This document shows positions 37,942 through 53,353 of a DNA stretch of 64,000 bases, piece by piece. This DNA is from Clostridia bacterium (lineage in GTDB: Bacteria > Bacillota > Clostridia > Christensenellales > CAG-138): the NCBI GenBank assembly GCA_017429985.1, contig JAFRNW010000018.1, positions 259,120 through 323,119 of the forward strand, in the 5' to 3' direction. The notes under the pieces are model-generated. The model searched no databases and was not told the DNA's origin. It saw nothing but the letters and a program-made list of their open reading frames with translations. The first letter of the stretch is position 1; every line of letters begins with the position of its first letter. The translations under genes and the position numbers were made by a program.

Positions 37942-37967
37942 CCGGGAATCAATATCCTGATAAAATA

Positions 37968-37995: not shown

Positions 37996-38055
37996 TATTA
38001 TTCACTGAGAAATGGAGCAATCTTGTCATTTCCTTATAATGGTCTTAAGAGAGCA

Positions 38056-39378
38056 TTATTCGTAGTCTTCGAGTTTGAACTCGTAGTCCTTGCCGGGCAG
38101 GACCGCGTTGGCAATGATACCAACGAGAGCCGCAACGGCGAGACCGCCGAGCTGGATCGGTCCGAGTACGAGCGGATAGGTGTTGAAGCCAAGTCCGCAG
38201 ACAAGGATCAAAGCAGCGATCAGGATGTTACGCATGTTCTTGAAGTCAACCTTGTTCTCAACGATCGTGCGAATACCGGTTGCAGAGATCATGCCGTAGA
38301 GAACCATTGAAATACCGCCGATGATGGAGGCAGGAATGGTCTGGATGAACGCTTCGAAGATGGAGATGAATGACAAGATGATCGTGAAGCATGCCGCAAT
38401 GAGCATGACCTTCGGATCATAGACCTTGGTCAGAGCAACAACACCGGTGTTCTCGGAATAGGTCGTGTTGGCGGGGCCGCCGAAGAGACCTGCGAGGGAG
38501 GTGCCGATACCGTCGCCGAGAAGGGTACGGGTCAGACCGGGATCTGCGATGAAGTTCTTGCCGCAGGTAGCGCCGATCGCGCAGATATCGCCGATATGCT
38601 CAACCATGGCCGCAACAGCAACAACGACGAACGTGATGATCGCGTTGGCTGCCATGCCGCCGTCCATCGCTCCTCCGAAGAGCAGCGGGAGCGGAGAGTA
38701 TGTTGCAAAAGGCGGAACCGAAATGATCTTCGAACCAGCAAGAGTGGAGAAGTCGACCCAGGGGAGTCCGAACAGAGCGTTGCCGGAAACCAGGGAGATC
38801 AGAGCGCCGACTACATAGGATACGATGATGCCCATGAGGACCGGGATGATCTTGATCATTCCCTTGCCGAACAGGTTCGTGCAGACGATGACCACGATTG
38901 CCAGGATCGCAAGGATCCAGTTGGTCTGCGCATTGTTAATAGCAGAAGCGGAGAGAATCAGACCGATGAGAACAATGATCGGGCCAGTAACAACCGGCGG
39001 GAACAGTCTCATGATCTTCTTCGGTCCAAAGATGGCAATCAGGGCAGCAAGGACGACATACAGAAGACCGGCACAGACAACACCAAGTGTTGCATACGGG
39101 ATCTTAGCAAGTTCGCCGTTTGCAACAGATGCAAATGCGCCAAGGAATGCGAAGGAAGATCCGAGGAAAATCGGGATCTTTTTCTTCGTGATGAAATAGA
39201 ACCAGATTGTACCGATACCGGCGCAGAAGAGGGTAACAGAAATGGATAGGCCGGTAAGAATAGGTACGAGAACGGTTGCACCGAACATTGCGAATACGTG
39301 CTGGAGTCCGAGAACGATCATTTTGCCCGTTCCGAGCTCTTTAAAGCCATCGTATACGCCATCAACTTTCTTTTCCAT
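38056..39378 (-). CDS. NCS2-family nucleobase permease, closest by eye to the UraA/PyrP (uracil) type
   Basis: 440 aa. GLQHVFAMFGATVLVPILTG, KKIPIFLGSSFAF, VEHIGD and PANTTYSENTGVVALTKVYD line up with E. coli UraA motifs (LQHLFAMFGATVLVP, GKIPAYLGSSFAF, EHVGH, NTTYGENIGVMAITRVYS). Confidence 0.88.
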   Translation of the reverse strand: MEKKVDGVYDGFKELGTGKMIVLGLQHVFAMFGATVLVPILTGLSISVTLFCAGIGTIWFYFITKKKIPIFLGSSFAFLGAFASVANGELAKIPYATLGVVCAGLLYVVLAALIAIFGPKKIMRLFPPVVTGPIIVLIGLILSASAINNAQTNWILAILAIVVIVCTNLFGKGMIKIIPVLMGIIVSYVVGALISLVSGNALFGLPWVDFSTLAGSKIISVPPFATYSPLPLLFGGAMDGGMAANAIITFVVVAVAAMVEHIGDICAIGATCGKNFIADPGLTRTLLGDGIGTSLAGLFGGPANTTYSENTGVVALTKVYDPKVMLIAACFTIILSFISIFEAFIQTIPASIIGGISMVLYGMISATGIRTIVENKVDFKNMRNILIAALILVCGLGFNTYPLVLGPIQLGGLAVAALVGIIANAVLPGKDYEFKLEDYE

Positions 39379-39511
39379 GGTTTACCTCCTGTTATTGAAT
39401 AGATAAGGGTCTCCATTCCTCACAAGGAACCTATTTGCTTCTTCTCAGTGATTTATTGGAAGCGGATCACGGTTTTGCCGCTCACCGCGCCAACACGTAT
39501 GGATCAAATGA

Positions 39512-40129
39512 TCAGTAGGGTTTCATTTTGCTGTAGCATTCCTGGGAGACAATTTCCTTCAGCATCTCCCCGCGGATTTTTTTCTGCCTTGAAAAATAGA
39601 ATTCCAGTTCCTCGATATCCTTCTTGTCTCTGATTTTGGACGGATCGTCAATCAGTGACAGACAAAGATTCGTGAGATCGTAGCAGCGGTTCATGATCAG
39701 ATTGATTTTCTTTCCGATCAGATTGATCGATGTCAGATACTCCTGCGTTTTATGCCGCATGCTGAACATGGTTTTGATCTGCTCAATGTCCTCGGCATCC
39801 ACGCCACGGTTGAATATCTCGCGGATGCTCTTCGCCTGATCTTCCGGAGGAAGCGCGCGAACGTATCCCCCCTCTCCCGTTTCATATCTGACCCTGTCAA
39901 CCACATTGCTCCCGTTCAGCACACGATCCGTGACCGTGCAGTAGGCTTCCGCAAACGCATCGATGAACGGCTGGATCTTCTTCTTCCTGTACTTGGAAAG
40001 AAGCAGGATCATCGCTATGAGCGCAAGTATGACGACAATTCCCGATAACTGCTGCAAACTGTTTCCGGTCCTTTCCGGAACGAATTCGGATCGGGGACTC
40101 CGCACAGGGCAGAGCCCCCGTCTTTTCAT
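39512..40129 (-). CDS. Hypothetical single-pass membrane protein (AT-rich ORF)
   Basis: 205 aa with one TM segment (LSGIVVILALIAMILLLS) and a charged helical C-terminal part. No family recognised and the start is uncertain. It lies between the Mo subunit and permease genes. Confidence 0.4.
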   Translation of the reverse strand: MKRRGLCPVRSPRSEFVPERTGNSLQQLSGIVVILALIAMILLLSKYRKKKIQPFIDAFAEAYCTVTDRVLNGSNVVDRVRYETGEGGYVRALPPEDQAKSIREIFNRGVDAEDIEQIKTMFSMRHKTQEYLTSINLIGKKINLIMNRCYDLTNLCLSLIDDPSKIRDKKDIEELEFYFSRQKKIRGEMLKEIVSQECYSKMKPY

Positions 40130-40138
40130 TCCTCAGGT

Positions 40139-42448
40139 TTATTTCTTGGCTTTCAGTGCTGCAAGCACAACATCCGGCATGAGCGGCATCCGCGTGAATC
40201 TGACTCCGGTCGCATTGGCAACCGCGTTTGCGATCGCAGGCGCGCCCGGAACCATGACGATTTCACCGATACCACGTGCTCCGTAAGGACCTGTCGGCTC
40301 CGCATTCTCAACGACCTCAACGATCAGTTCCGGCATATCGTCGAATGTCGGGATCTTGTAGTCCACGAAGCTCGGGTTCATGACCTTTCCTTCTTTGAGT
40401 TTCAGTTCTTCCCAGAGCGCGGTTCCCATTGCCTGGACCATGGCGCCTTCCGCCTGTCCCTCATACATCTGGGGGTTGATGACCTTGCCGGCGTCAAAGA
40501 CGGATACCATCTTCAGCACCTTTACCTTGCCGGTGTCAAGATCCACCTCAACCTCAGCGCCGTTGACGCCCATCGTCCAGAATGCAACCGGTTTCGGGGA
40601 AAGACCGGTCTTAATGTCCGCCGCGATGTTGTTCGGAACCGTATAGGAACCGACGCCGATCATCGGGCCTGCAATACCGCTCTGGTCCGGAAGCATCAGA
40701 CCGAGTGCGAAAGTGGAGATCGGGACTTTTATGTCCGGATAGAACACTCTGCGGACATACCCGTCTTCCAGATACAGGTCCTTCTTCCAGGTTCCCATCT
40801 TGATCTGGGCAACTTCAAGGATCTTGTCCCTGAGATCTTCCGCAGCAAGTTTCGTCGCGTTGCCGGCGCAGTACGTGGAACGGGACGCAACCGTCTGCCA
40901 CTCGTACGGGGTATGATCCGTATCGCCTGTCCTGACTGTGATCTTGCTGACGTCGACCGTCAGTGTTTCAGCGGCGATCTGTGCCATGACCGTGTCAGAG
41001 CCCTGGCCCATATCATGGCAGGAGCAGAGAAGAATGAACGTTCCGTCCTCATTCATGCGGATAATGACGGAAGACTGTGCATCTGTCGGCATGGACGGCG
41101 CTTTCCAGCCGCCCGCCAGACCTTTGCCGCGGACCTTTCTCGGATTGCCGGAAGGCTCGCAGGGCTTGTCGTACTCGATAAGAGCAGCTGCCTTTTCAAG
41201 GCATTCCTGATAGCCGGCAACATCAATGACCTGACCTGTTGCGGAGACGCCGCCCGGACGGATTCCGTTGATACGGCGGATATCCAGAGGCGATATGCCC
41301 ATTTCGTTTGCAACCATATCCAGGTTCTGCTCGATTGCGAAGTGGATCTCACTCATGCCGAAACCGCGGTACGGACCGCCGACCGGGTGGTTCGTGTAGA
41401 CGCAGTAGCTGTCTGTCGCGATGTTCTCGATATCATACGGACCGACACAGCCCCATCCTGCTGCTTTAACGATGTTTACGCCGTACTCTGTGTAGGCGCC
41501 GCCGTCCCATGCCAGCACGTTCTTCGAGCCGATGATCTTTCCATCCTTGTTGACCGCTGTCTGGATACGGATATGCAGTCCCTGACGGACGTATGCATAC
41601 TGGAACTCGTCTTCACGGGTGTAGGTCAGTTTGACCGGACGTCCGGGGCAGAGCATAGCCAGCGGAATAACGATACCTTCCAGCGTTGTTCCCGCTTTAC
41701 AGCCGAATCCGCCGCCAACCGCTTTACTGATAACGCGAATCTTGTTGAGCGGGAAATCGAATGTTTCCGCCAGCGCACGGCGGACAGCAAACGGAGACTG
41801 GCAGGCAGCCCAGATGCACAGTTCGCCGTCCGGCATATACTGCGCGGTGCAGGCGTGCGGCTCGATCGGTACGTGCTGCACGTGCGGAATATAGAAGCTG
41901 TTGTCAAATGTCTTGTATGCTTCCTTGAACGCCTTTTCGGCATCTCCCTTGCGCAGGACGTAGTGGTGGGAAATATTGGTGCCTTTCTGCGGATAGAAAA
42001 TCGGAGCTACCTTGTATGTGTGCAGATCGGGGTGGATCAGCGGCGCATCCGGTTTCATGCCGTCCAGGGAATCAAACACCGCGGGAAGCTCTTCATACTC
42101 CACTTCGATCAGTTTGCAGGCTTCTTCCGCGATTTCTTTGGACTCCGCGGCAACAGCCGCGACAGGCTCTCCTTTGAATTTCGCGGTACCGACCGCCAGA
42201 AAGTTTTTGTCTTCCAGATACAGGCCGGCACGTTTCTTATAGTATTCACCGGTAATAACGCAGCGAACGCCATACAGCTGCTCCGCTTTGCTTGTGTCGA
42301 TCTTCAGAATTTTCGCATGCGCATAGGGGCTGCGCTTGACCTGCGCGAACAGCGGACGGGAAAACTGAATATCATCCGCGAATTGTGCAGATCCGGTTAC
42401 TTTTTTAATGGCATCAAGCCGTTCTACGGATGTTCCGACAACTCTCAT
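40139..42448 (-). CDS. XDH/aldehyde-oxidoreductase-family molybdopterin-binding large subunit
   Basis: 769 aa: VERLDAIKKVTGSAQFADD, RSPYAHAKI, VGGGFGCKAG, GQGSDTVMAQIAAE, PYGARGIGE. Confidence 0.9.
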   Translation of the reverse strand: MRVVGTSVERLDAIKKVTGSAQFADDIQFSRPLFAQVKRSPYAHAKILKIDTSKAEQLYGVRCVITGEYYKKRAGLYLEDKNFLAVGTAKFKGEPVAAVAAESKEIAEEACKLIEVEYEELPAVFDSLDGMKPDAPLIHPDLHTYKVAPIFYPQKGTNISHHYVLRKGDAEKAFKEAYKTFDNSFYIPHVQHVPIEPHACTAQYMPDGELCIWAACQSPFAVRRALAETFDFPLNKIRVISKAVGGGFGCKAGTTLEGIVIPLAMLCPGRPVKLTYTREDEFQYAYVRQGLHIRIQTAVNKDGKIIGSKNVLAWDGGAYTEYGVNIVKAAGWGCVGPYDIENIATDSYCVYTNHPVGGPYRGFGMSEIHFAIEQNLDMVANEMGISPLDIRRINGIRPGGVSATGQVIDVAGYQECLEKAAALIEYDKPCEPSGNPRKVRGKGLAGGWKAPSMPTDAQSSVIIRMNEDGTFILLCSCHDMGQGSDTVMAQIAAETLTVDVSKITVRTGDTDHTPYEWQTVASRSTYCAGNATKLAAEDLRDKILEVAQIKMGTWKKDLYLEDGYVRRVFYPDIKVPISTFALGLMLPDQSGIAGPMIGVGSYTVPNNIAADIKTGLSPKPVAFWTMGVNGAEVEVDLDTGKVKVLKMVSVFDAGKVINPQMYEGQAEGAMVQAMGTALWEELKLKEGKVMNPSFVDYKIPTFDDMPELIVEVVENAEPTGPYGARGIGEIVMVPGAPAIANAVANATGVRFTRMPLMPDVVLAALKAKK

Positions 42449-42924
42449 TTGTCATAGACCCCCTTCTCTGCGACCGCTTCAATTGCTTCAACGATCTTTT
42501 TATATCCCGTGCAGCGGCACAGGTTTCCGCTCATGGCTTTCTTGATCTCATCCCTTGTCGGATGCGGATTGTCACGGAGAAGTGATTCAGCGCTCATCAG
42601 CATGCCGGGCGTGCAGAAGCCGCACTGCAGAGCCATGTGCTCAATAAAGGATTCCTGCAGCGGTGAAATCTGGCTGCCTTTTGCAAGGCCTTCGACGGTT
42701 TCAATATGCATTCCGTCCAGCTCAGGCGCGAGGATCAGGCAAGCGTTGACCGCCTTGCCGTCCACGATAACCGTGCAGGCACCGCACTCACCGGCGCCGC
42801 AGCCTTCCTTTGTGCCTGTCAGTGCGAGATCCTCGCGGAGGACGGACAGGAGCGTGCGGTTTGCAGGAACGCGGAGCTCGATCGGTTCATCATTTACGAA
42901 AAACTTGACAAGATATTCTTTCAT
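42445..42924 (-). CDS. [2Fe-2S]-binding small subunit of a molybdenum hydroxylase
   Basis: 159 aa: GCGAGECGACTVIVDG, CGFCTPG, LCRCTGY. 4-nt overlap with the large-subunit gene. Confidence 0.9.
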   Translation of the reverse strand: MKEYLVKFFVNDEPIELRVPANRTLLSVLREDLALTGTKEGCGAGECGACTVIVDGKAVNACLILAPELDGMHIETVEGLAKGSQISPLQESFIEHMALQCGFCTPGMLMSAESLLRDNPHPTRDEIKKAMSGNLCRCTGYKKIVEAIEAVAEKGVYDK

Positions 42925-42936
42925 TTCCGTTCCTCC

Positions 42937-43767
42937 TTACGCCAGCTTGGTAAGCACATCGCGGACGATGTACGAGACCATGTCAAGACGATACTGTTTG
43001 GAAGCACGAACGTCGTCGATCGGATTGACTTCCGTCGGAGCCAGTTCCGCAGCCTCATCAATCAGTTCTTTGGTCAGTTTCTTGCCGGCAAGCAGTTCTT
43101 CCGTCTTTTTCAGGCGGAGCGGGGTCGGAGCAACGGAACCCATGGCAATGTGGTACTCGTCGCCGAATTTCAGTACCGTACCGCACACGGTGGAAAGATC
43201 CACCTGGTCTCTTCTGGCAATCTTACGGAATTCTCCTTCTGCCTCGCGGTAAGGCACCCGGATGCCGGTCACGAGTTCTCCGCGCTCCAGCGCTACCTTG
43301 CGGACGAACAGAATAAACTCTGTGATCGGAATCTCACGCTTGCCGTTCGGCCCGAGGATCTCAAGGACAGCATCATAGCAGTACAGCGGGGTCGCCGTAT
43401 CCGCCAAAGGAGATGCATTGACGATGTTTCCCACGCAGGTCGCGCGGTTGCGCACCTGTCTGGATCCCACGGATTCCGCCGCGGCTGCAAGGGTCGGATA
43501 GTATTTCCGAACGTCCTCGTTTCCCGCGATCTCATTCATGGTAGCCAGACACCCGATGTGCAGTCCTTCCTCTTTCGAGAAAGTGATGCCATCCAATCCC
43601 GGAATCTTCTTTAAATCGATGACATACTCCGGGGTCAACAGATAGTCGCGCATACGCACAACTATGTCCGTGGCACCTGCCATAAAGACAGCCGCTTTGT
43701 CATACTCTTCCTTGAGTCTGACGGCCTCCTCCAATGTCTGGGGAAGCAGATACTGGAAATCCTTCAA
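42937..43767 (-). CDS. FAD-binding medium subunit of a molybdenum hydroxylase (CoxM-like)
   Basis: 276 aa: VFMAGATDIVVRMRD, ATCVGN. The FAD-FeS-Mo gene order is the CoxMSL-type arrangement. Confidence 0.85.
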   Translation of the reverse strand: MKDFQYLLPQTLEEAVRLKEEYDKAAVFMAGATDIVVRMRDYLLTPEYVIDLKKIPGLDGITFSKEEGLHIGCLATMNEIAGNEDVRKYYPTLAAAAESVGSRQVRNRATCVGNIVNASPLADTATPLYCYDAVLEILGPNGKREIPITEFILFVRKVALERGELVTGIRVPYREAEGEFRKIARRDQVDLSTVCGTVLKFGDEYHIAMGSVAPTPLRLKKTEELLAGKKLTKELIDEAAELAPTEVNPIDDVRASKQYRLDMVSYIVRDVLTKLA

Positions 43768-43816
43768 AGTTCTACCTCCTTTTTATAGGTCTGATTTATC
43801 GTAGAATTTCCCTTTA

Positions 43817-44419
43817 TCAGGTACTCCTGATTTTCAATAAACTGTCGTAATCGTCCGGTGTGTCAACATCAAGCCCGCATCCAACGTCATCCGTCAGAAC
43901 GTATTCCGTTTTTCCGGCGCAGGCTTTGAATCCCCCGTGCAGCCCGTTCTGTCCGTCATAAACCGCGAGCAGTTCAAGGCAGGCTCTGGATAGAAGAGGC
44001 GGATGAAGCCGTTTCATTCCCTGACTCGGAAAAACAAGATCGGCTTCCGTTTCCTCCATCTTCCGGATCAGTCCCGGCAGGATCTTGGGCGGAACTGCCG
44101 GCATATCTCCCGGAAGCAGGAACGCTGCGTCGACGGCCGGATCCTTCAGCACGTCTCTGATGGCGATCTGTGCGGAATCAAACATTTCCGTCGTTTCAAA
44201 CCGGTCATTGTGGAGCCACCTGACCGTCCTGTCCGAAAGAGCTTCCCGGATTTCCTCAGCCCTGTACCCGGTCACGACCCGCACGTCCGTGATTCCTGCC
44301 TGAAAAAACACATCCACGGAATGCGCGATCAGCGGCTTCCCGTTCAGGGGAAGCAAAGGCTTGAATCTGCCCATCCTTCTGGACATCCCGGCAACAAGAA
44401 CCACTCCAACCGTCTGCAT
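43817..44419 (-). CDS. mocA: Molybdenum cofactor cytidylyltransferase (MocA/MobA-like nucleotidyltransferase)
   Basis: ORF 43817..44506 trimmed to the ATG at 44419, giving MQTVGVVLVAGMSRRMG (the LAAGxSxRMG-type motif). DVDTPDDY is near the C-terminus. The RBS is weak, so the start is tentative. Confidence 0.7.
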   Translation of the reverse strand: MQTVGVVLVAGMSRRMGRFKPLLPLNGKPLIAHSVDVFFQAGITDVRVVTGYRAEEIREALSDRTVRWLHNDRFETTEMFDSAQIAIRDVLKDPAVDAAFLLPGDMPAVPPKILPGLIRKMEETEADLVFPSQGMKRLHPPLLSRACLELLAVYDGQNGLHGGFKACAGKTEYVLTDDVGCGLDVDTPDDYDSLLKIRST

Positions 44420-44510
44420 AAATACTTTTACCGGATCCCAATCCTTTCCGCCGGGGCGGGCTCTCTCTGTATCTGCGAAAAACACACAGTAATACTGCGT
44501 GCTCAATCAA

Positions 44511-44858
44511 TCAAAATATAGGTATCGAATCAATGGGGCAATTCCAAGAATTACGGATTTTATGATGTTCCACGCCTGCGCCAAACGACGCAGTCCGTAC
44601 CTCAAGATAACACTTCGGCGAAGCTCTGAATGATCCATCGGAATCAACAGATGTGAAGATAAGCAATAACTGACCATCATAATCCCCGGATTTGAACCTG
44701 GTGAAAACAAGAATACGACCGAAACTGTCTCGCTCCAGCTCGGAAATCTCATTAAACTCGAAGTCATTTATCTGCTTCTGGTATAATGCGGCCGTCAGAT
44801 CCATGGTGGCTTTTCTGACAGCTTCTTCCGGTTCTTGTCCGCCAAATAAACGCATCAT
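44511..44858 (-). CDS. Hypothetical protein (AT-rich orphan ORF)
   Basis: 115 aa. GAGGAAG lies upstream of ATGATG. The middle of the sequence looks plausible for a beta-rich fold (GRILVFTRFKSGDYDGQLLLIFTSVDSDGSF). No family recognised. It is visibly more AT-rich than its neighbours. Confidence 0.4.
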   Translation of the reverse strand: MMRLFGGQEPEEAVRKATMDLTAALYQKQINDFEFNEISELERDSFGRILVFTRFKSGDYDGQLLLIFTSVDSDGSFRASPKCYLEVRTASFGAGVEHHKIRNSWNCPIDSIPIF

Positions 44859-44989
44859 AGCTTCCTCGTTAATCAGTTATAGGATAACGCAAATCGCATT
44901 TTATTTCAAGCGATTCAAAAAATGAAACTTGTTACCCCAAAAATTTTTTACCCGTGAGAATGCAGCCTTTTTCCAGTGAACCCGCGGTA

Positions 44990-45799
44990 TTATGCATCCT
45001 CAAATCCGTCAAACGCAACAATTCTCGTTACACAGGCTTCCCCTCCGACCAGCTTCCACGGAAACGCTCCAATCACGCAGCGTTTATTAGAAAGCTTATC
45101 GATATCACCGCCGAGGCATTCCGCATGAATTGCTTCATAAGGCTGTTTGAACAGTTCAATATGCATCGCCTGATAGTGATCCGGCCAGGGATAGAGCTCC
45201 GCCAACGTTTTTCCGTAACGGGCGAAAAGCTTCTCCTCGCATTTTTTCGCTTCCTTCGGTTCCCAGTCACGAATCTTCGTGTTCATCGGATGATCTGCAC
45301 TTCCGCAGTCCACTCCGATCCAGCGCAGCTTCTTGTCACGCACCCATTGCACAAAGTCCATATCCGGTCCCGGATGACGGATCATATACCGTTTCTCATC
45401 CGCTGTCCCGGGCATGTCCCAGCCGTATTTATGATATCCCGTATTGATGATCAGGATGTCTCCCTCTCTCACTTCGACTCTTTTTTCAATATCTTTGGAT
45501 GTATAGATTGCGAAGTCATCTTCACCGAACTCGTCAGAAAGATCGACCACCACGCCGGGATGACAAAGCTTTGTCAGTTCAAGAGAGGCCATGTCGCGTC
45601 CGGCGGTATCAAAATGGATCGGTCCGTCCAGATGCGTTCCCACATGATTGCTGTGGGTCAGAACCTGCCCATTTGCCCCGTTCGGTGCCAGCCTCTTAAA
45701 AAATTTCATTTCAAGCGGCTCCATCGTCGGCCACGGCAGGCATCCAACTCCAAATTTACAGGAAAGATCATAAACTGTAATATCAGACCATTTGCTCAT
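44990..45799 (-). CDS. Cyclase-family metal-dependent hydrolase (kynurenine formamidase / isatin hydrolase superfamily), copy A
   Basis: 269 aa with HVGTHLDGPIHF, which matches the family HxGTHxDxPxH motif. It is a paralog of the next gene. Confidence 0.85.
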   Translation of the reverse strand: MSKWSDITVYDLSCKFGVGCLPWPTMEPLEMKFFKRLAPNGANGQVLTHSNHVGTHLDGPIHFDTAGRDMASLELTKLCHPGVVVDLSDEFGEDDFAIYTSKDIEKRVEVREGDILIINTGYHKYGWDMPGTADEKRYMIRHPGPDMDFVQWVRDKKLRWIGVDCGSADHPMNTKIRDWEPKEAKKCEEKLFARYGKTLAELYPWPDHYQAMHIELFKQPYEAIHAECLGGDIDKLSNKRCVIGAFPWKLVGGEACVTRIVAFDGFEDA

Positions 45800-45924: not shown

Positions 45925-45954
45925 AAAAAAGGGCGGTCGCAGAAGGACCGCCCC
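45925..45954 (-). terminator. Rho-independent terminator between the two cyclase paralogs
   Basis: The minus strand reads GGGCGGUC-cuucugc-GACCGCCC followed by UUUUUUCAAAU, starting about 12 nt after the stop of copy B. Confidence 0.8.
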
Positions 45955-45965
45955 GAAATAATGCA

Positions 45966-46775
45966 TCAGACATCCTCAAAACCGTCGAACGCGACGATAC
46001 GGGAGATGCAGCTCTCGCCCTCGACCAGCTTCCACGGGAAGCAGCCGATAACGACACGCTTGTTGGACAGCTCATCGATCTGGCCGCCAAGGCACTCGGC
46101 ATGAATTGCCTCATAGGGCTGGCAGAACAGTTCGATATGCATTGCCTGATAATGATCCGGCCACGGATACATCTCGTTCAGGGTCTTGCCGTACTTCTCC
46201 TGGAACTTCTTGTCGCACTTTGCGGCTTCCATCGGCTCCCAGTCACGGATCTTCGTGTTCATCGGGTGGTCTGCGCTTCCGCAGTCAACGCCGATCCAGC
46301 GGATCTTCTTTTCACGGACCCATTTCACGAAGTCCAGATTCGGACCGGGGTGACGGAGCATATAACGTTTTTCATCCGCTGTTCCCGGAGCATCCCAGCC
46401 ATATTTATGATAGCCGGTGTTGATGATCAGGATGTCGCCCTCTTTGACTTCCACACGTTTTTCAATGTCCTCGGCGGTGTAAATGCCGAAATCGTCCTCG
46501 CCGAACTCATCGGAAAGGTCAACAACTACGCCGGGATGCACGAGCTTTGTGAGCTCCAGGGACGCCATATCGCGGCCTGCTGTATCAAAATGGAGCGGAC
46601 CGTCAAGGTGAGTACCAACATGGTTGCTGTGTGTCAGCAGCTGGCCGTTTGCACCGTTCGGAGCGAGACGTTTGAAGAACTTCATCTGAAGCGGCTCATA
46701 GGTCGGCCACGGCGGCGTGCAGATGCCAATCGGGATTGAAAGATCATACATCTTGATGTCAGACCATTTACTCAT
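45966..46775 (-). CDS. Cyclase-family metal-dependent hydrolase, copy B
   Basis: 269 aa with HVGTHLDGPLHF. AGGAGGACA lies upstream. By my hand count it is roughly 80-85 percent identical in protein to copy A. Confidence 0.85.
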   Translation of the reverse strand: MSKWSDIKMYDLSIPIGICTPPWPTYEPLQMKFFKRLAPNGANGQLLTHSNHVGTHLDGPLHFDTAGRDMASLELTKLVHPGVVVDLSDEFGEDDFGIYTAEDIEKRVEVKEGDILIINTGYHKYGWDAPGTADEKRYMLRHPGPNLDFVKWVREKKIRWIGVDCGSADHPMNTKIRDWEPMEAAKCDKKFQEKYGKTLNEMYPWPDHYQAMHIELFCQPYEAIHAECLGGQIDELSNKRVVIGCFPWKLVEGESCISRIVAFDGFEDV

Positions 46776-46845
46776 TTGTGTGTCCTCCTAAAAAAATATG
46801 TGTGTATTGTTTTTGGCATGATCAGTGCCACAAAGCCTTGTTGAG

Positions 46846-46874
46846 GGGATGGATGACCCGATGTCATCCATCCC
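46846..46874 (-). other. Intercistronic 12-bp perfect stem-loop (no U-tract)
   Basis: GGGATGGATGAC-5 nt-GTCATCCATCCC, in the 110-nt gap between the DUF1116 gene and cyclase copy B. Confidence 0.5.
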
Positions 46875-46885
46875 TGCCGTTCATG

Positions 46886-48310
46886 TTACGCCCATTCTTC
46901 CGCACAGGCAGCAAGCGCCTTCTTGAAGCACTCTTCCGGCGGATTCACGATGCCCGCGCCGACCTGGCCGACACCGTAGTCCTTGTGGGCAATACCCGTA
47001 TTGATGATCGGACGGATACCCGTCTCGATGACCTTGAGCAGATCGATACCTGTCGCACTGCCGCGGAAGTCGAGTGCCGGGATCTTATAGGACTGGCCTT
47101 CGCCGACCGTGATCTCATACATGGTCTTCGAGTAGTTCAGCGCGTCGCTGACCTGGCCGCCAACGAACTGTACGATCGCCGGTGCGGCCGCCATGCAGAA
47201 GCCGCCGATACCGGCAGTTTCCGTGATGCAGGAGTCGCCGAGATCGGGTGCTGCGTCGCACTCATCGAATCCCGGGAAGTACAGGCCCTTGACCATCTCT
47301 GCAGGACCGGTGAACCACTTGTTGGGACCGAGACCCGCGATCCGGATGCCGAAGTCCGTGCCGTTACGGCACATTGTCGCGAGCACCGTGCAGTACGGGA
47401 TGTCGAAGATCGGATCCATCGTGCACTTGCAGGCGGGCATCGAGATGTTCAGGAACGTGTGGTTGTTCCCGTTGATGAAGTTAAAGGCATCGATCTTATC
47501 CTGCTCCGGAATATCCAGAGCCATGATGGACGGAACGAGTTCGCGGATCAGCAGGGACGTTCCCGCTTCGTTACGGTTGTGCGCTTCGTCGCCCATCTGG
47601 AGCAGTTTGGAGATCAGGACCTTGACGTCGATCTCGCCTTTGAGTTTCATCGCGTCACGCAGGACCGGATACAGTTTTTTCTCCATCCAGCGGAGACGCT
47701 CGAACACTTCTTCATCGCATGCGCCGAAGCGGAGCACCTTGCCGAGGCCTTCATTGAACGTGCAGTATGCACGGTTTCCGAACGCCTTGTTTTCAAGGAT
47801 CCACACGGGCATATGATAGGTGACGACGCCGGCCATCGGACCGACTGCGCTGTGCATATGGCAGGGATCGAATTTGATCTTTCCCGATGCAGCGAGTTTT
47901 TCTGCTTCCGCAATGTCCTTTGCGCGTCCCTCATAGATCAGGCCGCCCATGACAGCGCCCCTCTGCGGTCCGCACATACGGTCCCAGGTGATCGGAGGTC
48001 CGGCATGCAGGATCGTGTCTTCGGTCATTCCGGGGATCACTTCACCGGCAATGCCTACGCCGACAATCGTCGGCTGGGCGGCAAGAATCCGTCTGAGCGC
48101 CTCTTTATTGGCCTCCTGAATCTTCTCGAGGAGTTCAGGTTTTTTCAGTTTACGAAGATTTCCGGCAGCTACTTTGTCGCCGCCTGCAACCGGCTTCCAG
48201 TCCACATGGACCGCGGGAACACGCTGGCTCTCGAGATCTTTGTAGAAGGACTCGATACCGAAGTTGACGACGTGCAGTTCTTTTGCGAACAAATCATTCA
48301 GCTTACTCAT
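46886..48310 (-). CDS. DUF1116 protein (YlbE/AllG-like)
   Basis: 474 aa starting MSKLNDLFAKELHVVNFGIESFYKDLESQ.., directly downstream of an FdrA-type gene as in E. coli fdrA-ylbE. Family assignment is by eye from the N-terminus and context. Confidence 0.75.
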   Translation of the reverse strand: MSKLNDLFAKELHVVNFGIESFYKDLESQRVPAVHVDWKPVAGGDKVAAGNLRKLKKPELLEKIQEANKEALRRILAAQPTIVGVGIAGEVIPGMTEDTILHAGPPITWDRMCGPQRGAVMGGLIYEGRAKDIAEAEKLAASGKIKFDPCHMHSAVGPMAGVVTYHMPVWILENKAFGNRAYCTFNEGLGKVLRFGACDEEVFERLRWMEKKLYPVLRDAMKLKGEIDVKVLISKLLQMGDEAHNRNEAGTSLLIRELVPSIMALDIPEQDKIDAFNFINGNNHTFLNISMPACKCTMDPIFDIPYCTVLATMCRNGTDFGIRIAGLGPNKWFTGPAEMVKGLYFPGFDECDAAPDLGDSCITETAGIGGFCMAAAPAIVQFVGGQVSDALNYSKTMYEITVGEGQSYKIPALDFRGSATGIDLLKVIETGIRPIINTGIAHKDYGVGQVGAGIVNPPEECFKKALAACAEEWA

Positions 48311-48323
48311 TGTACGTTCCTCC

Positions 48324-49901
48324 TTACTTCAGGTTTGCAAGGACACGCTCAACGAAACGCGTGGCCTGTGCATTGGACGGAAGTACGACAGCACCGGCAT
48401 CCTCAAGCTTCTTCTGTGTCCTGGACAGGCACTGCGGGTCACCCTCTGTGCCACAGACTTCCACGACGCAGCAGAGATAACGTCCCTCTTTTTCCGCTTC
48501 AGCTTTCGCAGTCCGGATCGCGTCGGAAAGATCAGCCGCGGGATCCTCATGGGAGCCGTATCCGATAACGCAGTCACAAAGAATAACAGCGCATTCCGGA
48601 TCCTTTCCATCCGTAATAACACGCTCTGCGCGGAGGCTGGGATCGATCATCGGGTGCGGACGGCCGACGGTGAATTCATCATCGCCAAAGTCAAGGAAGG
48701 TATGCTCCTTGCTTGGGCCGGTACGCGCATTCTCCAGCTTATCCTCGGCATGCAGCGGGATATTGGAATAGATATGACCGAGTTTGTCGATCATCAGTTT
48801 CATGGCCTCGTCGCAAAGCGTTCCGCCGGTATAGAAGCCGCGGACATATTTCTGCGATTTTGCCATCTTGCCGGCGATCTCCTTCGCCATGGCCTCGGCT
48901 TTGTCATTGCCCATCGTAAAGTCGACGTAATCCTTCAAAGGTTCGCCGCGAAGCAGTGCAACTGCCTTGTGCGCAGCATCTTCAAGGGATTTCGCCGCGA
49001 TAAGCCCCTTCGCCTCGATCTCTTTCGGATCGCCGCCGATGAATTCAACCACGACCGGTTTCCCTGCATCTTTTGCGATGTCAAGGATCATGCTGGCAAT
49101 CTCAGCGGCCGGGGGTTTCGAAACAAGCGTGATGACCTTTGTGTTCGGATCGTTGATCAGGGCATCCAGTCCGAGCTTCATCATCAGGCCGCCGATGTCC
49201 TTCTTCAGATCACGGCCGCCGGTTCCGATAACCTGGGAAACGCCTTCGCCCAGCTGTGCAATGATCGAGCTGACTTCCTGCGTTCCTGTACCGGAAGCGC
49301 AGACCATTCCGATTCCGCCTTTCGGCACAACGTTTGCGAACGCCAGCGGAATGTTGTTAATAATCGCCGTGCCGCAGTCAGGTCCCATGACAAGAAGTTC
49401 ATGCGCATAGGCATATTCCTTCAATGCCTTTTCCTCTTCGATCGTTACGTTATCGGAGAACAACATAACGTTAATGTCGCGGTCGAGGCAGCTCTGTGCA
49501 ACATCAGCTGCGAATTTTCCGGGAACTGAAATAACCGCCATATTCAGATCGGGATCGACCTTGATGGCGCCTTCCAGTGTCGGCGGATAATAGGTGGATT
49601 CCTTCTGCTCGGATTTTTTGTTGAGCAGCTCTTCAACCTTCTTCTGTGCTGCTTCAAAAACCTCTTCCGAATCACACTCAACGGCTACAAAGAAGTCATT
49701 GGATGTAACATTTGCATCAAACTCCGGGGTGGCAAGTCCGATATTATGGGCAATCTCAACATTAAGATCGGTTCCCATACCGACCAGTGCTTCTTTCACA
49801 CCGTCAAGTTTCTTAAGGTCTTTGGAGATCAGCATGAGGGTTACGGAATCATAGTAAGCATTTTTTCTGATTTCCAGTTTAACCACTATTTTTCCCTCCA
49901 T
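48324..49901 (-). CDS. fdrA: FdrA-type protein (succinyl-CoA-synthetase-alpha-like; AllF-like)
   Basis: 525 aa. N-terminus: IRKNAYYDSVTLMLISKDL (compare E. coli FdrA FQDSVSLMIISRKL). CoA-ligase-like core: LLVMGPDCGTAIINNIPLAFAN, VCASGTGTQEV, IGTGGRD. Confidence 0.85.
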   Translation of the reverse strand: MEGKIVVKLEIRKNAYYDSVTLMLISKDLKKLDGVKEALVGMGTDLNVEIAHNIGLATPEFDANVTSNDFFVAVECDSEEVFEAAQKKVEELLNKKSEQKESTYYPPTLEGAIKVDPDLNMAVISVPGKFAADVAQSCLDRDINVMLFSDNVTIEEEKALKEYAYAHELLVMGPDCGTAIINNIPLAFANVVPKGGIGMVCASGTGTQEVSSIIAQLGEGVSQVIGTGGRDLKKDIGGLMMKLGLDALINDPNTKVITLVSKPPAAEIASMILDIAKDAGKPVVVEFIGGDPKEIEAKGLIAAKSLEDAAHKAVALLRGEPLKDYVDFTMGNDKAEAMAKEIAGKMAKSQKYVRGFYTGGTLCDEAMKLMIDKLGHIYSNIPLHAEDKLENARTGPSKEHTFLDFGDDEFTVGRPHPMIDPSLRAERVITDGKDPECAVILCDCVIGYGSHEDPAADLSDAIRTAKAEAEKEGRYLCCVVEVCGTEGDPQCLSRTQKKLEDAGAVVLPSNAQATRFVERVLANLK

Positions 49902-50788
49902 ATTGAAGTATGTATGATAGCTAATACAATACCGGTAAGAGTGTCCGTGCCGGATGTGGACCCAAATGAAGCAACCCGAAACGCTGCTTTGCTGATAAGG
50001 TCCGCATCCGAGCCGTAGAAAAGTAGCTTGAGCAGGTGTAGGACGTCTTCGGATATCTGTCCTTTGCTTACCTGCAATAGAAATGTACCGCTGATGCGGT
50101 TCGTTTTCCCGGCGGCAGCAACTGCCGCGCGGGAAATGGTCTGGCTGAGCAGATAATCCTCTTCAGCCTGCGCTTTCACCTGCATGACCGAAAAGAATCC
50201 ATTCAGCAGATCGTCTGATGACGGAGTCAGTCCGATTCCGCATCCGGCGATTCTCTCTGCGGCACGCTCAGCCGCCTCGGGATCTTTTGCCTCGATTGAG
50301 CGGTATAGTTCGGGCAATCTCGGGTTGATCAGGTCGGCGTACACATTCCCTGGAAGGTCTACCGCCAGATTCGATAACCCGTTTTCATCTCCGATTTCAC
50401 GCAGAACCTTCAGTAAAGGTTCCGGATCAGGTCTCACAACTTCTGCAAAACATCCCGAAGGAAACGCACCGGCAACCGACATATCGACCTGCTGTACCCC
50501 TGAAAGAGATACATACAGATCCTCGCCGATCCAGATCCCTTCGCCGTCCGCTTTCACCGGATCTCCCGTATGGATCCCCTCTGAAAGAAAGGATATCATT
50601 TCGGCTGTCCGGCAGGAGAACGGCTGCAAGCCTCTTCCCTTACATAGTATCGAAATCATCCCGATATCCGTGTCCAGATTGACTGCACGTTCGAATACGG
50701 AATGAACTTCGCCTTTCGGGCTCGTGATAAGCAGTGTGCGAAACAAGGTTCCGCACACTGCATCGATCCTTACTATACGCGGAACCAT
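49886..50788 (-). CDS. DUF2877 protein (YlbF/AllH-like)
   Basis: 300 aa. The IAGCGIGLTPSSDDLLNGFF motif matches the GxGxGLTPSGDD signature I associate with DUF2877. 16-nt overlap with the fdrA-like start. Confidence 0.7.
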   Translation of the reverse strand: MVPRIVRIDAVCGTLFRTLLITSPKGEVHSVFERAVNLDTDIGMISILCKGRGLQPFSCRTAEMISFLSEGIHTGDPVKADGEGIWIGEDLYVSLSGVQQVDMSVAGAFPSGCFAEVVRPDPEPLLKVLREIGDENGLSNLAVDLPGNVYADLINPRLPELYRSIEAKDPEAAERAAERIAGCGIGLTPSSDDLLNGFFSVMQVKAQAEEDYLLSQTISRAAVAAAGKTNRISGTFLLQVSKGQISEDVLHLLKLLFYGSDADLISKAAFRVASFGSTSGTDTLTGIVLAIIHTSIWREK

Positions 50789-50803
50789 ACGGGTCCCTGA
50801 TGA

Positions 50804-51175
50804 TTACGCCTTCTGGAAAATGAAGCCGTACTGGGGCTCGGTAACGGTCTCTTTGTATTTGATGACCTTGTCCCTGACCTGACCGACAGTCGCTACAAGC
50901 TCCATGCCGGTCTCGATGCCGTCATCAAAACCGATCTGGCCGGTCGCGCGGACGCCGTTCGGGAATTCTACGATTCCGAAGTTGAGCCACGGAACCATGT
51001 ATCCCTCAGGAAGGTTATAAACACGGGTCCAGGTCAGCAGTTTGCATTTGCCCTCGAGCGGTACTTCCTCGAACTCACGGCCGTCGCAATCGGGATTCTG
51101 GCACACGATGTAACGGGGATGATGAAGCTTACCGCATTTCTTGCACTTATAAGCATACATTTTCATTTCTTCCAT
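50804..51175 (-). CDS. DUF35 zinc-ribbon/OB-fold protein (thiolase-partner type)
   Basis: ORF 50804..51181 trimmed to the ATG at 51175, 7 nt after AGGAGGG. It has a zinc ribbon (CKKCGKLHHPRYIVCQNPDC) followed by an OB-like region. It lies directly downstream of the thiolase-fold gene. Confidence 0.8.
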   Translation of the reverse strand: MEEMKMYAYKCKKCGKLHHPRYIVCQNPDCDGREFEEVPLEGKCKLLTWTRVYNLPEGYMVPWLNFGIVEFPNGVRATGQIGFDDGIETGMELVATVGQVRDKVIKYKETVTEPQYGFIFQKA

Positions 51176-51188
51176 GATCATTCCCTCC

Positions 51189-52385
51189 TTATTTCGTGGT
51201 CAGAATGGTTGCAACGACGTTGTTGCCGAAACCACCGAAGTTGATTGCCAGCGCTGTCTTGGCTCCTTCGACCTGACGCTCACCAGCTTCGCCGCGAAGC
51301 TGTTTGACCAACTCAACGATCTGGGAAACACCGGTCGCACCAAGCGGATGACCTTTTGCTTTCAGACCGCCGGATGTATTGATCGGCATCTCGCCCTTGA
51401 TCTCGGTCTTTCCTTCACGGGCTGCCAGATGGCCGGTGCCGCGCGGGAAGAGACCTGTTTCTTCGGACTCTGCGATCTCGAGAATCTGGAACGCGTCATG
51501 AAGCTCTGCAACATCGATATCCTTCGGGGTAAATCCGGACATCTTGTACGCCATCTGAGCGGAAAGACGGACGGCCAGCAGGTCTGTCGGGACTTCACGG
51601 TTGGCAACGACATGAGTATCTGTTGCGGAACCGACACCGGCGATGCGGATGAACTTCTTGCCGCCGAAGCCCAGCTCTTCCTGTTTGTCCTTTGCAACAA
51701 GCAGAACAGCGGCAGCGCCGTCGGAAACCGGGCACATATCAAACTGGCGAAGCGGATCCGCTACCAACGGGTTGGTCGCGTTGATGATTCTTTCGTCCGT
51801 GATACGGTCGAGTTTAACGACATTGCGGATATGCGCTACGGGGTTCAAGCAGGCATTCGCATGATTCTTGACAGAAACGATGGAAAGATCCTTGCTAGTT
51901 ACACCGTATTTGTCCATGCAGAGACGTGTGAAAAGTCCCGCAAAGGAGGGAAGTGTGCAGCCGTATTTGTACTCTGCTTCCGGATGGAGCATCGTAGCAA
52001 CAAAGTCGGTTCCTTCCCAGCCGGTTACGGCACGCATTCCTTCTGCACCGACTACGAGAACGCAGTCGCATACGCCGGAAGCAATTGCCATGAATCCGAG
52101 TTTGACAGCGGATGCACCGGAGGCAGGACCATTCTCAATGGTCTCAGCCATGGCAGGACGGAGATTCAGCGTGTCGACCACAGCGGAAGCGAGTCCGCTG
52201 ATACGCTGAACCATTCCGGCAGCCATCGTTCCGATGAATACCTGATCAATAACATTTTTACGGCCGGTCTTAGCACCTGCATCATCCATGGCCTCAAGCG
52301 CAGCCTGGCAGGTCATGTCGATGAACGGAACATTGGACTTGCCGAATTTGGTGTGGCCAATGCCAACGATACCTACTTCGCGCAT
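51189..52385 (-). CDS. Thiolase-fold protein (SCP-x/archaeal type) that apparently lacks the catalytic cysteines
   Basis: 398 aa: MREVGIVGIGHTKFGK, FDMCPVSDGAAAVLL, NTSGGLKAKGHPLGATG. The position where the nucleophilic Cys is expected reads ENGPASGASA, and the C-terminal CxGG position reads NFGGFG. Confidence 0.8.
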   Translation of the reverse strand: MREVGIVGIGHTKFGKSNVPFIDMTCQAALEAMDDAGAKTGRKNVIDQVFIGTMAAGMVQRISGLASAVVDTLNLRPAMAETIENGPASGASAVKLGFMAIASGVCDCVLVVGAEGMRAVTGWEGTDFVATMLHPEAEYKYGCTLPSFAGLFTRLCMDKYGVTSKDLSIVSVKNHANACLNPVAHIRNVVKLDRITDERIINATNPLVADPLRQFDMCPVSDGAAAVLLVAKDKQEELGFGGKKFIRIAGVGSATDTHVVANREVPTDLLAVRLSAQMAYKMSGFTPKDIDVAELHDAFQILEIAESEETGLFPRGTGHLAAREGKTEIKGEMPINTSGGLKAKGHPLGATGVSQIVELVKQLRGEAGERQVEGAKTALAINFGGFGNNVVATILTTK

Positions 52386-52406
52386 TTCTTAAGTCCTTTC
52401 TGTCGA

Positions 52407-53087: not shown

Positions 53088-53152
53088 TGTGTGTGCCTCC
53101 TTAAAGATTTGATGTGATAATTAAGACTTGCCCCAGACCGGGGTCCAAATAT

Positions 53153-53181
53153 ATTCTAACGCGGGAATGCAATCTTGTCTA
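53153..53181 (-). promoter_or_regulatory. SigmaA-type promoter candidate for the GNAT-like/thiolase/FdrA/cyclase operon
   Basis: On the minus strand: TAGACA (53181-53176), a 17-nt spacer, then TAGAAT (53158-53153). It lies about 65 nt upstream of the ATG at 53087. Confidence 0.45.
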
Positions 53182-53305
53182 TACCATTCTTGCATTATTT
53201 TTTCGCCAATGATGTCCCGTTTTTTGTCGGATTCTTTTTGACCTGCCCGTTTTTCTCCATTAGGAAATGCTAGTTTTTCCCATTGTTTGGGGATATTTTT
53301 ACATC

Positions 53306-53353
53306 GTTCCATAATGCGGAACTATATGTTTCATATGTTCCGTATTATGGAAC
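53306..53353. promoter_or_regulatory. 48-bp near-perfect palindrome made of two 17-bp GTTCC-N7-GGAAC boxes (candidate operator)
   Basis: GTTCCATAATGCGGAAC (53306-53322), then tatatgtttcatat, then GTTCCGTATTATGGAAC (53337-53353). The second box is the reverse complement of the first with one mismatch. Confidence 0.5.

Follow-up and report, generated by a model that had tools for sequence, protein, structure and literature searches.

Aerobic bacteria such as Mycobacterium and Rhodococcus can degrade pyrimidines by an oxidative pathway that uses uracil/thymine dehydrogenase, barbiturase and ureidomalonase. The known substrates of the dehydrogenase (EC 1.17.99.4) are uracil and thymine, and to our knowledge there is no reference sequence for this enzyme, whose gene has never been identified. 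Barbiturase belongs to the cyanuric-acid-hydrolase family (PMC4051656, PMC3758960). Pyrimidine breakdown is shown with just four routes (Pyd, oxidative, Rut and URC) in a 2025 paper on anaerobic urate degradation. Little is established about the fate of uracil and thymine in strict anaerobes that do not use Pyd. Here we describe a 15-gene island from Clostridia bacterium (lineage CAG-138) that may encode an oxygen-independent counterpart of the oxidative pathway. It lies in a 64-kb stretch of contig JAFRNW010000018.1 (assembly GCA_017429985.1, positions 259,120 to 323,119), which we call the window. A model that saw only the letters of this DNA had suggested an undescribed anaerobic route for pyrimidine or purine catabolism (hereafter the sequence-only reading). 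Our full-text literature search, with subscription-only papers outside its reach, turned up work on E. coli AllFGH, papers on xanthinase and the 2,8-dioxopurine route, and chemistry papers, but none in which this set of genes is given a pathway, as that reading had expected.

Other described systems resemble the island in part. The clostridial xanthinase pathway, reportedly described by Tong et al. in 2023 (cited in PMC12507026), and the reductive 2,8-dioxopurine urate pathway share with it oxygen-independent nucleobase catabolism, a start with an enzyme of the xanthine dehydrogenase (XDH) family and ring-opening amidohydrolases. The xanthinase route includes a UbiD-type decarboxylase, and the urate pathway (XdhD, YgfK, SsnA, HyuA, YgeW, YgeY, YgeX) likewise uses a carbamoyltransferase and a carbamate kinase. 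DUF35 proteins are the usual partners of SCP2-/archaeal-type thiolases; in the archaeal thiolase/HMG-CoA synthase/DUF35 complex, an unfavourable reaction is driven by coupling to a favourable one, and Ltp2 is a thiolase fold working as a lyase. Escherichia coli FdrA, YlbE and YlbF (AllF, AllG and AllH) together form oxamate carbamoyltransferase, which interconverts oxalurate plus phosphate and carbamoyl phosphate plus oxamate (Kim and Kim 2024, PMC11326118), so the sequence-only reading had this trio right.

The island is very probably a catabolic operon for a nucleobase-type N-heterocycle, giving carbamoyl phosphate and a malonate-type unit. On balance, we also favour a narrower reading, that it runs the oxidative (barbiturate) pyrimidine pathway in a form that needs no oxygen. 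Its overall chemistry would then be known, its ring-opening and ureide-splitting enzymes would be non-homologous and energy-conserving, and its terminal module would be new. The boldest form of this proposal is a fifth, hitherto unnoticed pyrimidine catabolic route, widespread in strict anaerobes, common gut Clostridia included, in which the barbiturate pathway is built from non-homologous parts: a molybdenum (Mo) uracil/thymine dehydrogenase, a cyclase-family ring hydrolase, an AllFGH-type 'malonurate transcarbamylase' and a GNAT/thiolase/DUF35 complex. We put this form forward tentatively, as a little likelier to fail than to hold.

Every step of the proposed pathway is inferred from sequence and gene context. 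A UraA/RutG-type permease would bring in uracil and/or thymine (step 1), and a Mo/FAD/2Fe-2S hydroxylase, matured by a MocA-like protein, would hydroxylate C6 to give barbiturate or 5-methylbarbiturate (step 2). A cyclase-family metal hydrolase would then cut a ring N-C(=O) bond (step 3), producing ureidomalonate (N-malonylurea), the analogue of oxalurate that is one carbon longer. The chemistry of steps 2 and 3 follows the aerobic oxidative pathway. In step 4, the AllFGH homologue would phosphorolyse ureidomalonate to carbamoyl phosphate and malonamate; we propose this because the sole characterised AllFGH uses oxalurate, the lower homologue of ureidomalonate. A carbamate kinase encoded elsewhere could convert carbamoyl phosphate to ATP, CO2 and NH3.

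Step 5 is the weakest. Here the GNAT-fold protein, a thiolase-fold protein without its nucleophilic Cys and a DUF35 protein would convert malonamate to acetyl-CoA or acetate plus CO2 (and NH3), with the GNAT protein making the coenzyme A (CoA) thioester and the thiolase-fold protein decarboxylating it. The logic would be like that of the archaeal complex, i.e., an unfavourable intermediate channelled into a favourable step. Other lineages would instead use an amidase, a malonate CoA-transferase and a biotin-dependent Na+-pumping decarboxylase. The sequence-only reading had ended the pathway with C-C cleavage. This part does not stand up well: the thiolase-fold protein has no nucleophile, so thiolytic cleavage is less likely than a step that decarboxylates or handles a malonyl or malonamoyl thioester.

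Compared with the aerobic oxidative pathway, the likenesses are a Mo/FAD/Fe-S first enzyme, barbiturate and ureidomalonate as proposed intermediates, and a malonate C3 product. The differences are in the enzymes and the hosts. Ring opening would be done by a PF04199 cyclase, not by a 'Toblerone'-fold barbiturase, and the ureide would be split by phosphorolysis to carbamoyl phosphate and hence ATP, whereas the known route hydrolyses it to urea and malonate. The island's hosts are strict anaerobes. None of its 15 open reading frames (ORFs) matched a barbiturase (cyanuric-acid-hydrolase/AtzD family) or a hydrolytic ureidomalonase family in Pfam or NCBIfam.

The permease settles most of the question of pyrimidine versus purine, since by sequence it is a pyrimidine-clade carrier. 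Among solved structures its best relative is UraA (191 bits), compared with 38 bits for the uric acid-xanthine permease UapA, and among E. coli carriers it is closest to RutG (37% identity, 228 bits) and UraA (34%, 209 bits), ahead of UacT (26%, 122 bits) and XanQ (25%, 60 bits). Its signature in transmembrane segment 10 is E-N (TTYSENTG), as in UraA and RutG, versus Q-N in purine carriers, and transmembrane segment 8 carries a Glu (VEHIGD). The same holds for many related loci: UraA or RutG is the best match for 41 of 48 cluster-linked permeases, and the E-N motif is present in 32 of them. A cytosine-deaminase-like amidohydrolase gene also follows the cyclase in 10 of 80 loci. Together with malonate decarboxylase modules in sister loci (below), these features favour a pyrimidine over a purine substrate, narrowing the sequence-only reading to the first of its two options. 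Its more concrete idea, uracil or thymine to barbiturate to ureidomalonate, gains support from the permease clade and those decarboxylase modules.

Its motifs and scores set the Mo enzyme apart from canonical xanthine dehydrogenases. Its Mo subunit falls below every NCBIfam equivalog cut-off, including those of the XDH models (543 versus 780 and others), and its best solved relative is 4-hydroxybenzoyl-CoA reductase (336 bits; bovine XDH 185 bits). More broadly, 4-hydroxybenzoyl-CoA reductase, CO dehydrogenase and nicotine/quinoline enzymes score higher than bovine or Rhodobacter XDH. The motif GGGFGCK-A has Ala where the purine-binding Glu (bovine Glu802, the residue after GGFGGK) is expected. 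The subunit keeps the Glu of the GARGIGE motif, which we take to be the catalytic Glu, and the FAD subunit has no extra Cys-cluster insertion of the kind seen in reductase-type enzymes, so the enzyme looks competent for hydroxylation. We propose that it is a uracil/thymine dehydrogenase. The neighbouring MocA-like protein, whose matches to the MocA and DVU_1551 families are under the cut-offs, is a candidate for maturing the molybdopterin cytosine dinucleotide cofactor.

For ring opening, we propose cyclase 1 as an amidohydrolase analogous to barbiturase. The two cyclases of the island are 83% identical in protein and match PF04199 with E values of 5e-35 and 5e-32. The HxGTHxDxPxH metal site (H52, H56, D58 and H62) is invariant in the family alignment, and the proteins resemble kynurenine formamidases and isatin hydrolases of known structure only distantly (43 bits). 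Relatives at 63-95% identity occur in at least 593 species genomes in GTDB, and the Anaerotruncus-type cyclase was found on 522 contigs.

Two further observations concern the cyclases. Metagenome contigs L097, L106, L107, L110, L129 and L166 (L numbers are our own labels for loci) carry two or three cyclase paralogues that are 40-57% identical to the window's, and some environmental clusters have two GNAT paralogues beside XDH and AllG, which hints at additional ring-opening steps or a wider substrate range. In Omnitrophota-type metagenome-assembled genomes (MAGs; L009 10001-11737, L083 and L084), a 68%-identical cyclase is followed 25 nt on by an ornithine carbamoyltransferase (OTCase) gene, with neither AllFG nor XDH nearby. 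We considered this gene as support for a ureido product and give it little weight: it passes the ornithine carbamoyltransferase equivalog cut-offs and may be argF.

All three subunit families of the E. coli enzyme (FdrA/AllF, DUF1116/AllG and DUF2877/AllH) are encoded in the island. AllF exceeds its NCBIfam cut-off (Table 1) and also matches PF00549 and PF02629. The likeness to the E. coli AllFGH-AllK branch lies in this three-subunit enzyme, in the phosphorolysis of an N-acylurea to carbamoyl phosphate and an amide that we propose for the island, and in the carbamate kinase linked in 10 of 80 sister loci. Unlike that branch, the window has no allB, allC, allD, allE or allK, its AllF, AllG and AllH are only 39%, 44% and 23% identical to their E. 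coli counterparts, and its presumed substrate is one carbon longer. AllH is also undetectable in some sister loci. From its gene context, the AllFGH homologue may have a malonyl analogue of oxalurate as its substrate.

The AllH protein was modelled with AlphaFold2 at a predicted local distance difference test (pLDDT) score of 91, as a beta-rich N-terminal domain plus a helical bundle. A comparison with the PDB found no fold match at E <= 0.001 (best template modelling (TM) score 0.17), and therefore gives no hint of a hidden amidase or kinase. The predicted fold may not yet be among solved structures. In locus L138 (7785-10726), a divergent AllH stands with a cyclase and a GNAT-like gene and no AllF or AllG within 10 kb, so AllH may have a role independent of the AllF-AllG pair.

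A conserved module of approximately 55 residues (…VxNxG…F…HVDWKPVAGGNKKLA…) shifts its attachment between lineages. E. coli has it at the end of FdrA, as the C-terminus, and in the window it is fused to AllG, as that protein's N-terminus. A separate mini-ORF between allF and allG encodes it in Alkaliphilus, Lachnospiraceae and Anaerotruncus-type loci. Such a module probably forms the AllF-AllG interface.

The first three genes of the island encode the trio proposed for step 5. ORF1, which the sequence-only reading had called GNAT-like, matches no Pfam or NCBIfam profile; its predicted fold agrees with the name (AlphaFold2 pLDDT 88; Foldseek probability 1.0 against GNAT acetyltransferases, TM score 0.45-0.56, 10-16% identity). 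An R-G-x-R-x-G-A segment, read from the sequence, resembles a CoA pyrophosphate-binding loop. We propose that ORF1 binds CoA and forms or handles a malonyl or malonamoyl thioester. It belongs to a very small family (141 clusters at E <= 1e-3 in a set of 1.84 billion representatives), of which the Flavonifractor member was found on 739 contigs.

The second protein carries GPASG at the nucleophile site, where the best solved thiolase in the alignment (7yvy) has ACASG. Pro replaces Cys in the window protein and in 20 of 20 aligned orthologues, which agrees with the sequence-only description of a Cys-less thiolase, and the protein is under the cut-off of every NCBIfam thiolase model. Because Pro replaces the nucleophilic Cys, the sequence identifies this protein as something other than a thiolase, and we propose a decarboxylase or lyase acting on a CoA ester. 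There is precedent for GNAT folds and Cys-less ketosynthase/thiolase folds that decarboxylate malonyl thioesters. Structures 6esq/6et9, which we take to be the archaeal thiolase/HMG-CoA synthase/DUF35 complex, and 6ok1, presumably the Ltp2-ChsH2(DUF35) aldolase, are among its structure matches. The island shares with the archaeal complex an SCP2-/archaeal-type thiolase fold, a DUF35 protein and a third partner, which in the island is proposed to bind CoA. That partner is a predicted GNAT fold in the island, versus an HMG-CoA synthase or hydratase, and the island also differs from the archaeal complex and Ltp2 in the Pro that replaces the nucleophile in all orthologues aligned and in its presumed nucleobase-catabolism context.

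More distant GNAT members came from a metagenome scan that used a narrow GNAT alignment. At 34-45% identity, they again adjoin cyclase, XDH and AllFG genes. Their contigs almost never carry thiolase/DUF35 and never an amidase or CoA-transferase, and sometimes carry a biotin carboxyltransferase and an OAD-beta pump. This co-occurrence pattern suggests that the GNAT protein stands in for amidase plus CoA-transferase, making a malonyl thioester from malonamate or N-malonylurea, and that the Cys-less thiolase/DUF35 pair stands in for a decarboxylase.

Conservation of the cluster was assessed in the 80 best species loci, with a subset of 48 loci of at least 18 kb; neighbouring genes were counted by tblastn with the window's proteins. 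Across all 80 loci, the cyclase is linked to AllG in 73, AllF in 66, AllH in 49, XDH subunits in 39-43 and an NCS2 permease in 43, and in the longer subset the counts are 47 for AllG, 46 for AllF, 35 for NCS2 and 31 for the XDH Mo subunit. The order AllH-AllF-AllG-cyclase(-XDH-permease) recurs in Oscillospiraceae, Christensenellaceae, Lachnospiraceae, Flavonifractor, Anaerotruncus and Anaerocolumna. The same core order is found in Alkaliphilus metalliredigens, Tissierellia, Coriobacteriales, Anaerolineae, Synergistaceae (Synergistota) and Thermotogota. Because the order recurs in so many species, the arrangement is not due to chance, and the co-localisation predicted by the sequence-only reading is thus conserved.

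Sister loci differ in what accompanies this core. Type (a), as in the window, has GNAT, Cys-less thiolase and DUF35 (26 loci). Type (b) has a family III CoA-transferase that resembles dicarboxylate and oxalate CoA-transferases (24 loci), sometimes with a formamidase-/aliphatic-amidase-like CN-hydrolase or a carboxyltransferase; for example, the Alkaliphilus locus pairs such a CN-hydrolase with a dicarboxylate CoA-transferase, and Anaerotruncus-type loci combine the family III enzyme with a carboxyltransferase. Type (c), in Lachnospiraceae, has an amidase-signature amidase, MdcA, an MmdA-like carboxyltransferase, BCCP, and OAD gamma and beta, directly upstream of AllF-AllG-cyclase-XDH-permease. 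Here MdcA scores 799 bits against TIGR01110 (cut-off 789).

The 26 trio loci have no overlap with the 24 CoA-transferase loci or with the 12 amidase/MdcA/carboxyltransferase loci. The simplest reading of this mutual exclusion is that all three modules process the same core product, an amide-bearing malonate-type C3 unit (C4 from thymine), and the pathway's end product appears to be malonate or methylmalonate. Na+-translocating malonate/methylmalonyl-CoA decarboxylases (MdcA/MadA, MmdABCD) thus occur in genuine form in sister loci, at the position of the trio. They are not in the window, so the sister-locus copies inform on the C3 product only.

Several points weigh against the proposed pathway. 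The AllFGH homologues are only 39-44% identical to the sole characterised enzyme, so the substrate is not fixed by homology; nor does any other sequence feature fix the exact substrate identities. Approximately a third of related loci, including trio-bearing Christensenella types, have no XDH genes within 10 kb. A search of the window for carbamate kinase, amidase, CoA-transferase, MdcA, OTCase, PucR and XdhC found none, which leaves the 64 kb without an amidase for malonamate or a carbamate kinase, and an electron-acceptor partner is likewise missing from it. By our own rough estimate, the amide-to-thioester conversion of step 5 is thermodynamically marginal, or about thermoneutral with the pull of decarboxylation, and we know of no precedent for a GNAT protein turning an amide into a thioester. 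Some metagenomic loci have cyclase, GNAT and AllH but no AllF or AllG, so steps 4 and 5 could run in a different order (e.g., N-malonylurea + CoA to malonyl-CoA + urea). Finally, there are hints at purines: PucR-family regulators in 20 of 80 loci, and an adenine deaminase adjoining cyclase-XDH in one Thermotogota locus. PucR-type regulators are not purine-specific.

Uracil and thymine might not be the physiological substrates; the operon could instead act on a different heterocycle, pyrimidine-like or related, whose breakdown also gives an N-acylurea and a malonate-type unit. Candidates would be cytosine or isocytosine derivatives, 6-aminouracil, and modified or xenobiotic pyrimidines, including barbiturates and fluoropyrimidines. 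The sequences do leave the exact substrate unfixed, and such an alternative would accommodate the cytosine-deaminase-like genes in 10 loci, the substrate range suggested by two or three cyclase and two GNAT paralogues in environmental loci, and the XDH-less loci, which could begin from an already oxidised ring. We nonetheless consider it unlikely, given that UraA/RutG-type carriers have uracil and thymine as their abundant natural ligands and the oxidative pathway has the same two as its known substrates (EC 1.17.99.4).

The main rival to the barbiturate scheme, which we rate as less likely again, is one in which the cyclase opens uracil directly to 3-ureidoacrylate and the XDH-family enzyme acts last. 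The AllFGH homologue would produce carbamoyl phosphate and 3-aminoacrylate, which would spontaneously give malonic semialdehyde and NH3, and the Mo enzyme, as an aldehyde oxidoreductase, would make malonate. This would account for the absence of an amidase from the window and many loci, as well as for loci without XDH genes; XDH-family aldehyde oxidoreductases are among the Mo subunit's relatives, and xanthinase hydrolyses the pyrimidine ring of xanthine directly (PMC12507026). However, the same paper argues that direct hydrolysis is slow for xanthine and expected to be harder for the more aromatic uracil, and the sole characterised AllFGH uses an N-acylurea, not a vinyl-urea. Moreover, amidase, CN-hydrolase or cytosine-deaminase-like genes are linked in approximately 25 loci, and in distant phyla the cyclase lies immediately next to XDH, also in loci that have neither AllF nor AllG.

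It is improbable that the island is a purine operon (xanthine, urate or hypoxanthine), in which purines are interconverted by XDH, a ureido compound arises when the cyclase opens a ring (the pyrimidine one in xanthine or the imidazolone one in urate), and the AllFGH homologue then strips off the carbamoyl group. Besides the PucR-family regulators and the Thermotogota adenine deaminase mentioned above, such an operon would explain why the top NCBIfam match of the Mo subunit, below cut-off, is XdhA. Against this, the permease is not of the XanQ/UacT/UapA type, the Mo subunit has no Glu802 equivalent and matches true XDHs with lower scores than it does other members of the family, and the genuine malonate decarboxylase genes fit purine carbon skeletons poorly. 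For these three reasons, we rejected a purine substrate as the main model. The window also has no genes of the xanthinase route or the 2,8-dioxopurine route: beyond generic XDH-family and MocA homology, it holds no homologues of the urate pathway, and its inferred end product is malonate, whereas those pathways end in glycine or diaminopropionate.

It is very improbable that the AllFGH genes encode true oxamate carbamoyltransferases in an allantoin/oxalurate (or parabanate, s-triazine/biuret) variant ending in oxamate or oxalate: all three families are in the island, the linked family III CoA-transferases also resemble oxalate CoA-transferases and AllFGH adjoins biuret/triuret genes in nitrifier MAGs (PMC12625717), but the 64 kb have no AllA, B, C, D or E homologues, MdcA is above a malonate-specific cut-off, the decarboxylases are biotin-type and not TPP-dependent oxalyl-CoA decarboxylases, and the Mo hydroxylase and uracil-type permease would be left without a role. 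A true oxalurate pathway was rejected on the strength of tblastn, which found no allA/B/C/D/E/K genes in the window. The full set of signature proteins (AllA/B/C/D/E/K at E <= 1e-3, YgeW/X/Y, HyuA, YqeA, YqeB, YgfK, SsnA and RutA-D) gave no tblastn match there, in line with the sequence-only claim that the island is neither the E. coli allantoin regulon nor a ygeW-type urate cluster.

If the barbiturate scheme is right, an abundant but unannotated gene cluster gains a function, and the island provides the first candidate gene for a Mo-dependent uracil/thymine dehydrogenase. A second substrate would become known for the recently discovered AllFGH transcarbamylases, and the family's 'malonurate transcarbamylase' member would conserve the ureide bond as ATP. 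The thiolase/DUF35 scaffold would have a new use, in a GNAT/Cys-less-thiolase/DUF35 complex that takes malonamate (or N-malonylurea) to acetyl-CoA and CO2 without an amidase, a CoA-transferase or biotin. The nucleobase and nitrogen economy of the gut would be affected and, as speculation, possibly also the bacterial handling of fluoropyrimidines or barbiturates.

Table 1. Features of the island and its surroundings, in window positions unless a locus label is given.
Feature	Position	Strand	Family match or remark
Terminator-like hairpin	53653..53624	-	ends upstream type III glutamine synthetase gene
Palindrome, 48 bp	53306..53353	.	two GTTCC-N7-GGAAC boxes, 14 bp apart
SigA/sigma-70-like promoter	53153..53181	-	TAGACA-17-TAGAAT; 10/12 consensus matches; consensus match only
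ORF1, GNAT-fold protein, 226 aa	52407..53087	-	no Pfam/NCBIfam match; predicted fold only
Thiolase-fold protein without nucleophilic Cys	51189..52385	-	PF22691, PF00108
DUF35 Zn-ribbon protein	50804..51181	-	PF12172; BbsA-like over residues 9-104
AllH-like (DUF2877) protein	49886..50788	-	PF11392; 23% identical to E. coli YlbF
AllF/FdrA-like subunit	48324..49901	-	NF004760, 500 bits (cut-off 433); 39% identical to E. coli FdrA
Module of ~55 residues	48137-48310		also L007 8477-8647; L090 8455-8628; L091 8396-8584; E. coli L093 17181-17348
AllG/DUF1116-like subunit	46886..48310	-	PF06545; 44% identical to YlbE
Cyclase 1, cyclase-family metal hydrolase	45966..46775	-	PF04199
Terminator-like hairpin and T-run between cyclase genes	45930..45954	-	9 pairs, 7 G-C
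Cyclase 2, paralogue	44990..45799	-	PF04199; opens the more divergent second half of the operon
orf115, orphan	44511..44858	-	no Pfam/NCBIfam match
MocA-like nucleotidyltransferase	43817..44506	-	PF12804; 27% identical to E. coli MocA
FAD subunit, XDH-family	42937..43767	-	PF00941, PF03450
2x[2Fe-2S] subunit	42445..42924	-	PF01799, PF00111
Molybdopterin subunit	40139..42448	-	PF01315, PF02738, PF20256
205-aa protein, one N-terminal hydrophobic segment	39512..40129	-	no family match
NCS2 permease, UraA/RutG clade	38056..39378	-	PF00860; NAT motif TTYSENTG
Strong terminator-like hairpin after permease, closing the operon	37967..37998	-	14 pairs, 9 G-C

The 15 consecutive minus-strand ORFs run from 53087 to 38056 in the window's ORF list and are bounded by terminator-like hairpins. 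Spacing computed from the coordinates ranges from a 16-nt overlap (AllH/AllF) to 166 nt (cyclase 1/cyclase 2), close to the limit of about 170 nt given in the sequence-only reading. The promoter, the palindrome and the terminator between the cyclases were all found where that reading had placed them, and Pfam and NCBIfam agree with the families it had named, with ORF1, orf115 and the 205-aa ORF matching no profile. The last of these had been called a membrane ORF. By eye, it has a single N-terminal hydrophobic stretch and an otherwise soluble-looking sequence, so it is not a polytopic membrane protein; weak syntenic homologues (30-40% identity) occur in 14 of 80 loci. The other orphan, orf115, may not be a real gene, since the only contigs that gave a match to it belong to this species.

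The operon is a mosaic. From ORF1 through cyclase 1 (45966-53087), its proteins are 88-95% identical to those of the nearest species (L010), except AllH at 48%, while cyclase 2, the XDH subunits and the permease (38056-45799) reach at most 83%, 69% and 78% identity, respectively, in comparison with any of the 80 loci. At the DNA level, the two cyclase genes share 75-81% identity; they repeat with a 976-bp period and have a terminator between them. From these identities and the duplicated cyclase genes, it looks like the cyclase-XDH-permease module was replaced through lateral transfer. Proteins identical to the window's are found on contigs of one uncultured species (MAG GCA_017429555.1), and the closest other species are Oscillospiraceae-type MAGs.

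The 48-bp palindrome is the top-scoring inverted repeat within 400 bp upstream of ORF1 and is a candidate operator, with no regulator gene close to it. An Rfam/riboswitch scan of the island found no family, only a single chance-level match. Orthologous operons (L014, L017, L021 and L064) also have long, near-perfect palindromes at -110 to -260 of the ORF1 orthologue, with very different sequences (e.g., AACTAGCTCCCGTTTATAATTTAATTATAAACGGGAGCTAGTT in Anaerocolumna). This suggests fast-diverging operators of a regulator that is not encoded nearby.

The island is flanked by housekeeping genes: rplKAJL and glnA-III on one side, and sbcDC, a MacB-type ABC exporter and maltodextrin genes on the other. 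Core translation/transcription operons adjoin the cluster in two unrelated lineages, possibly by coincidence: rplKAJL with glnA in the window (53683-58000), and tuf-fusA-rpsG-rpsL-rpoCB in the Anaerotruncus-type loci L091/L092 (11860-20807).

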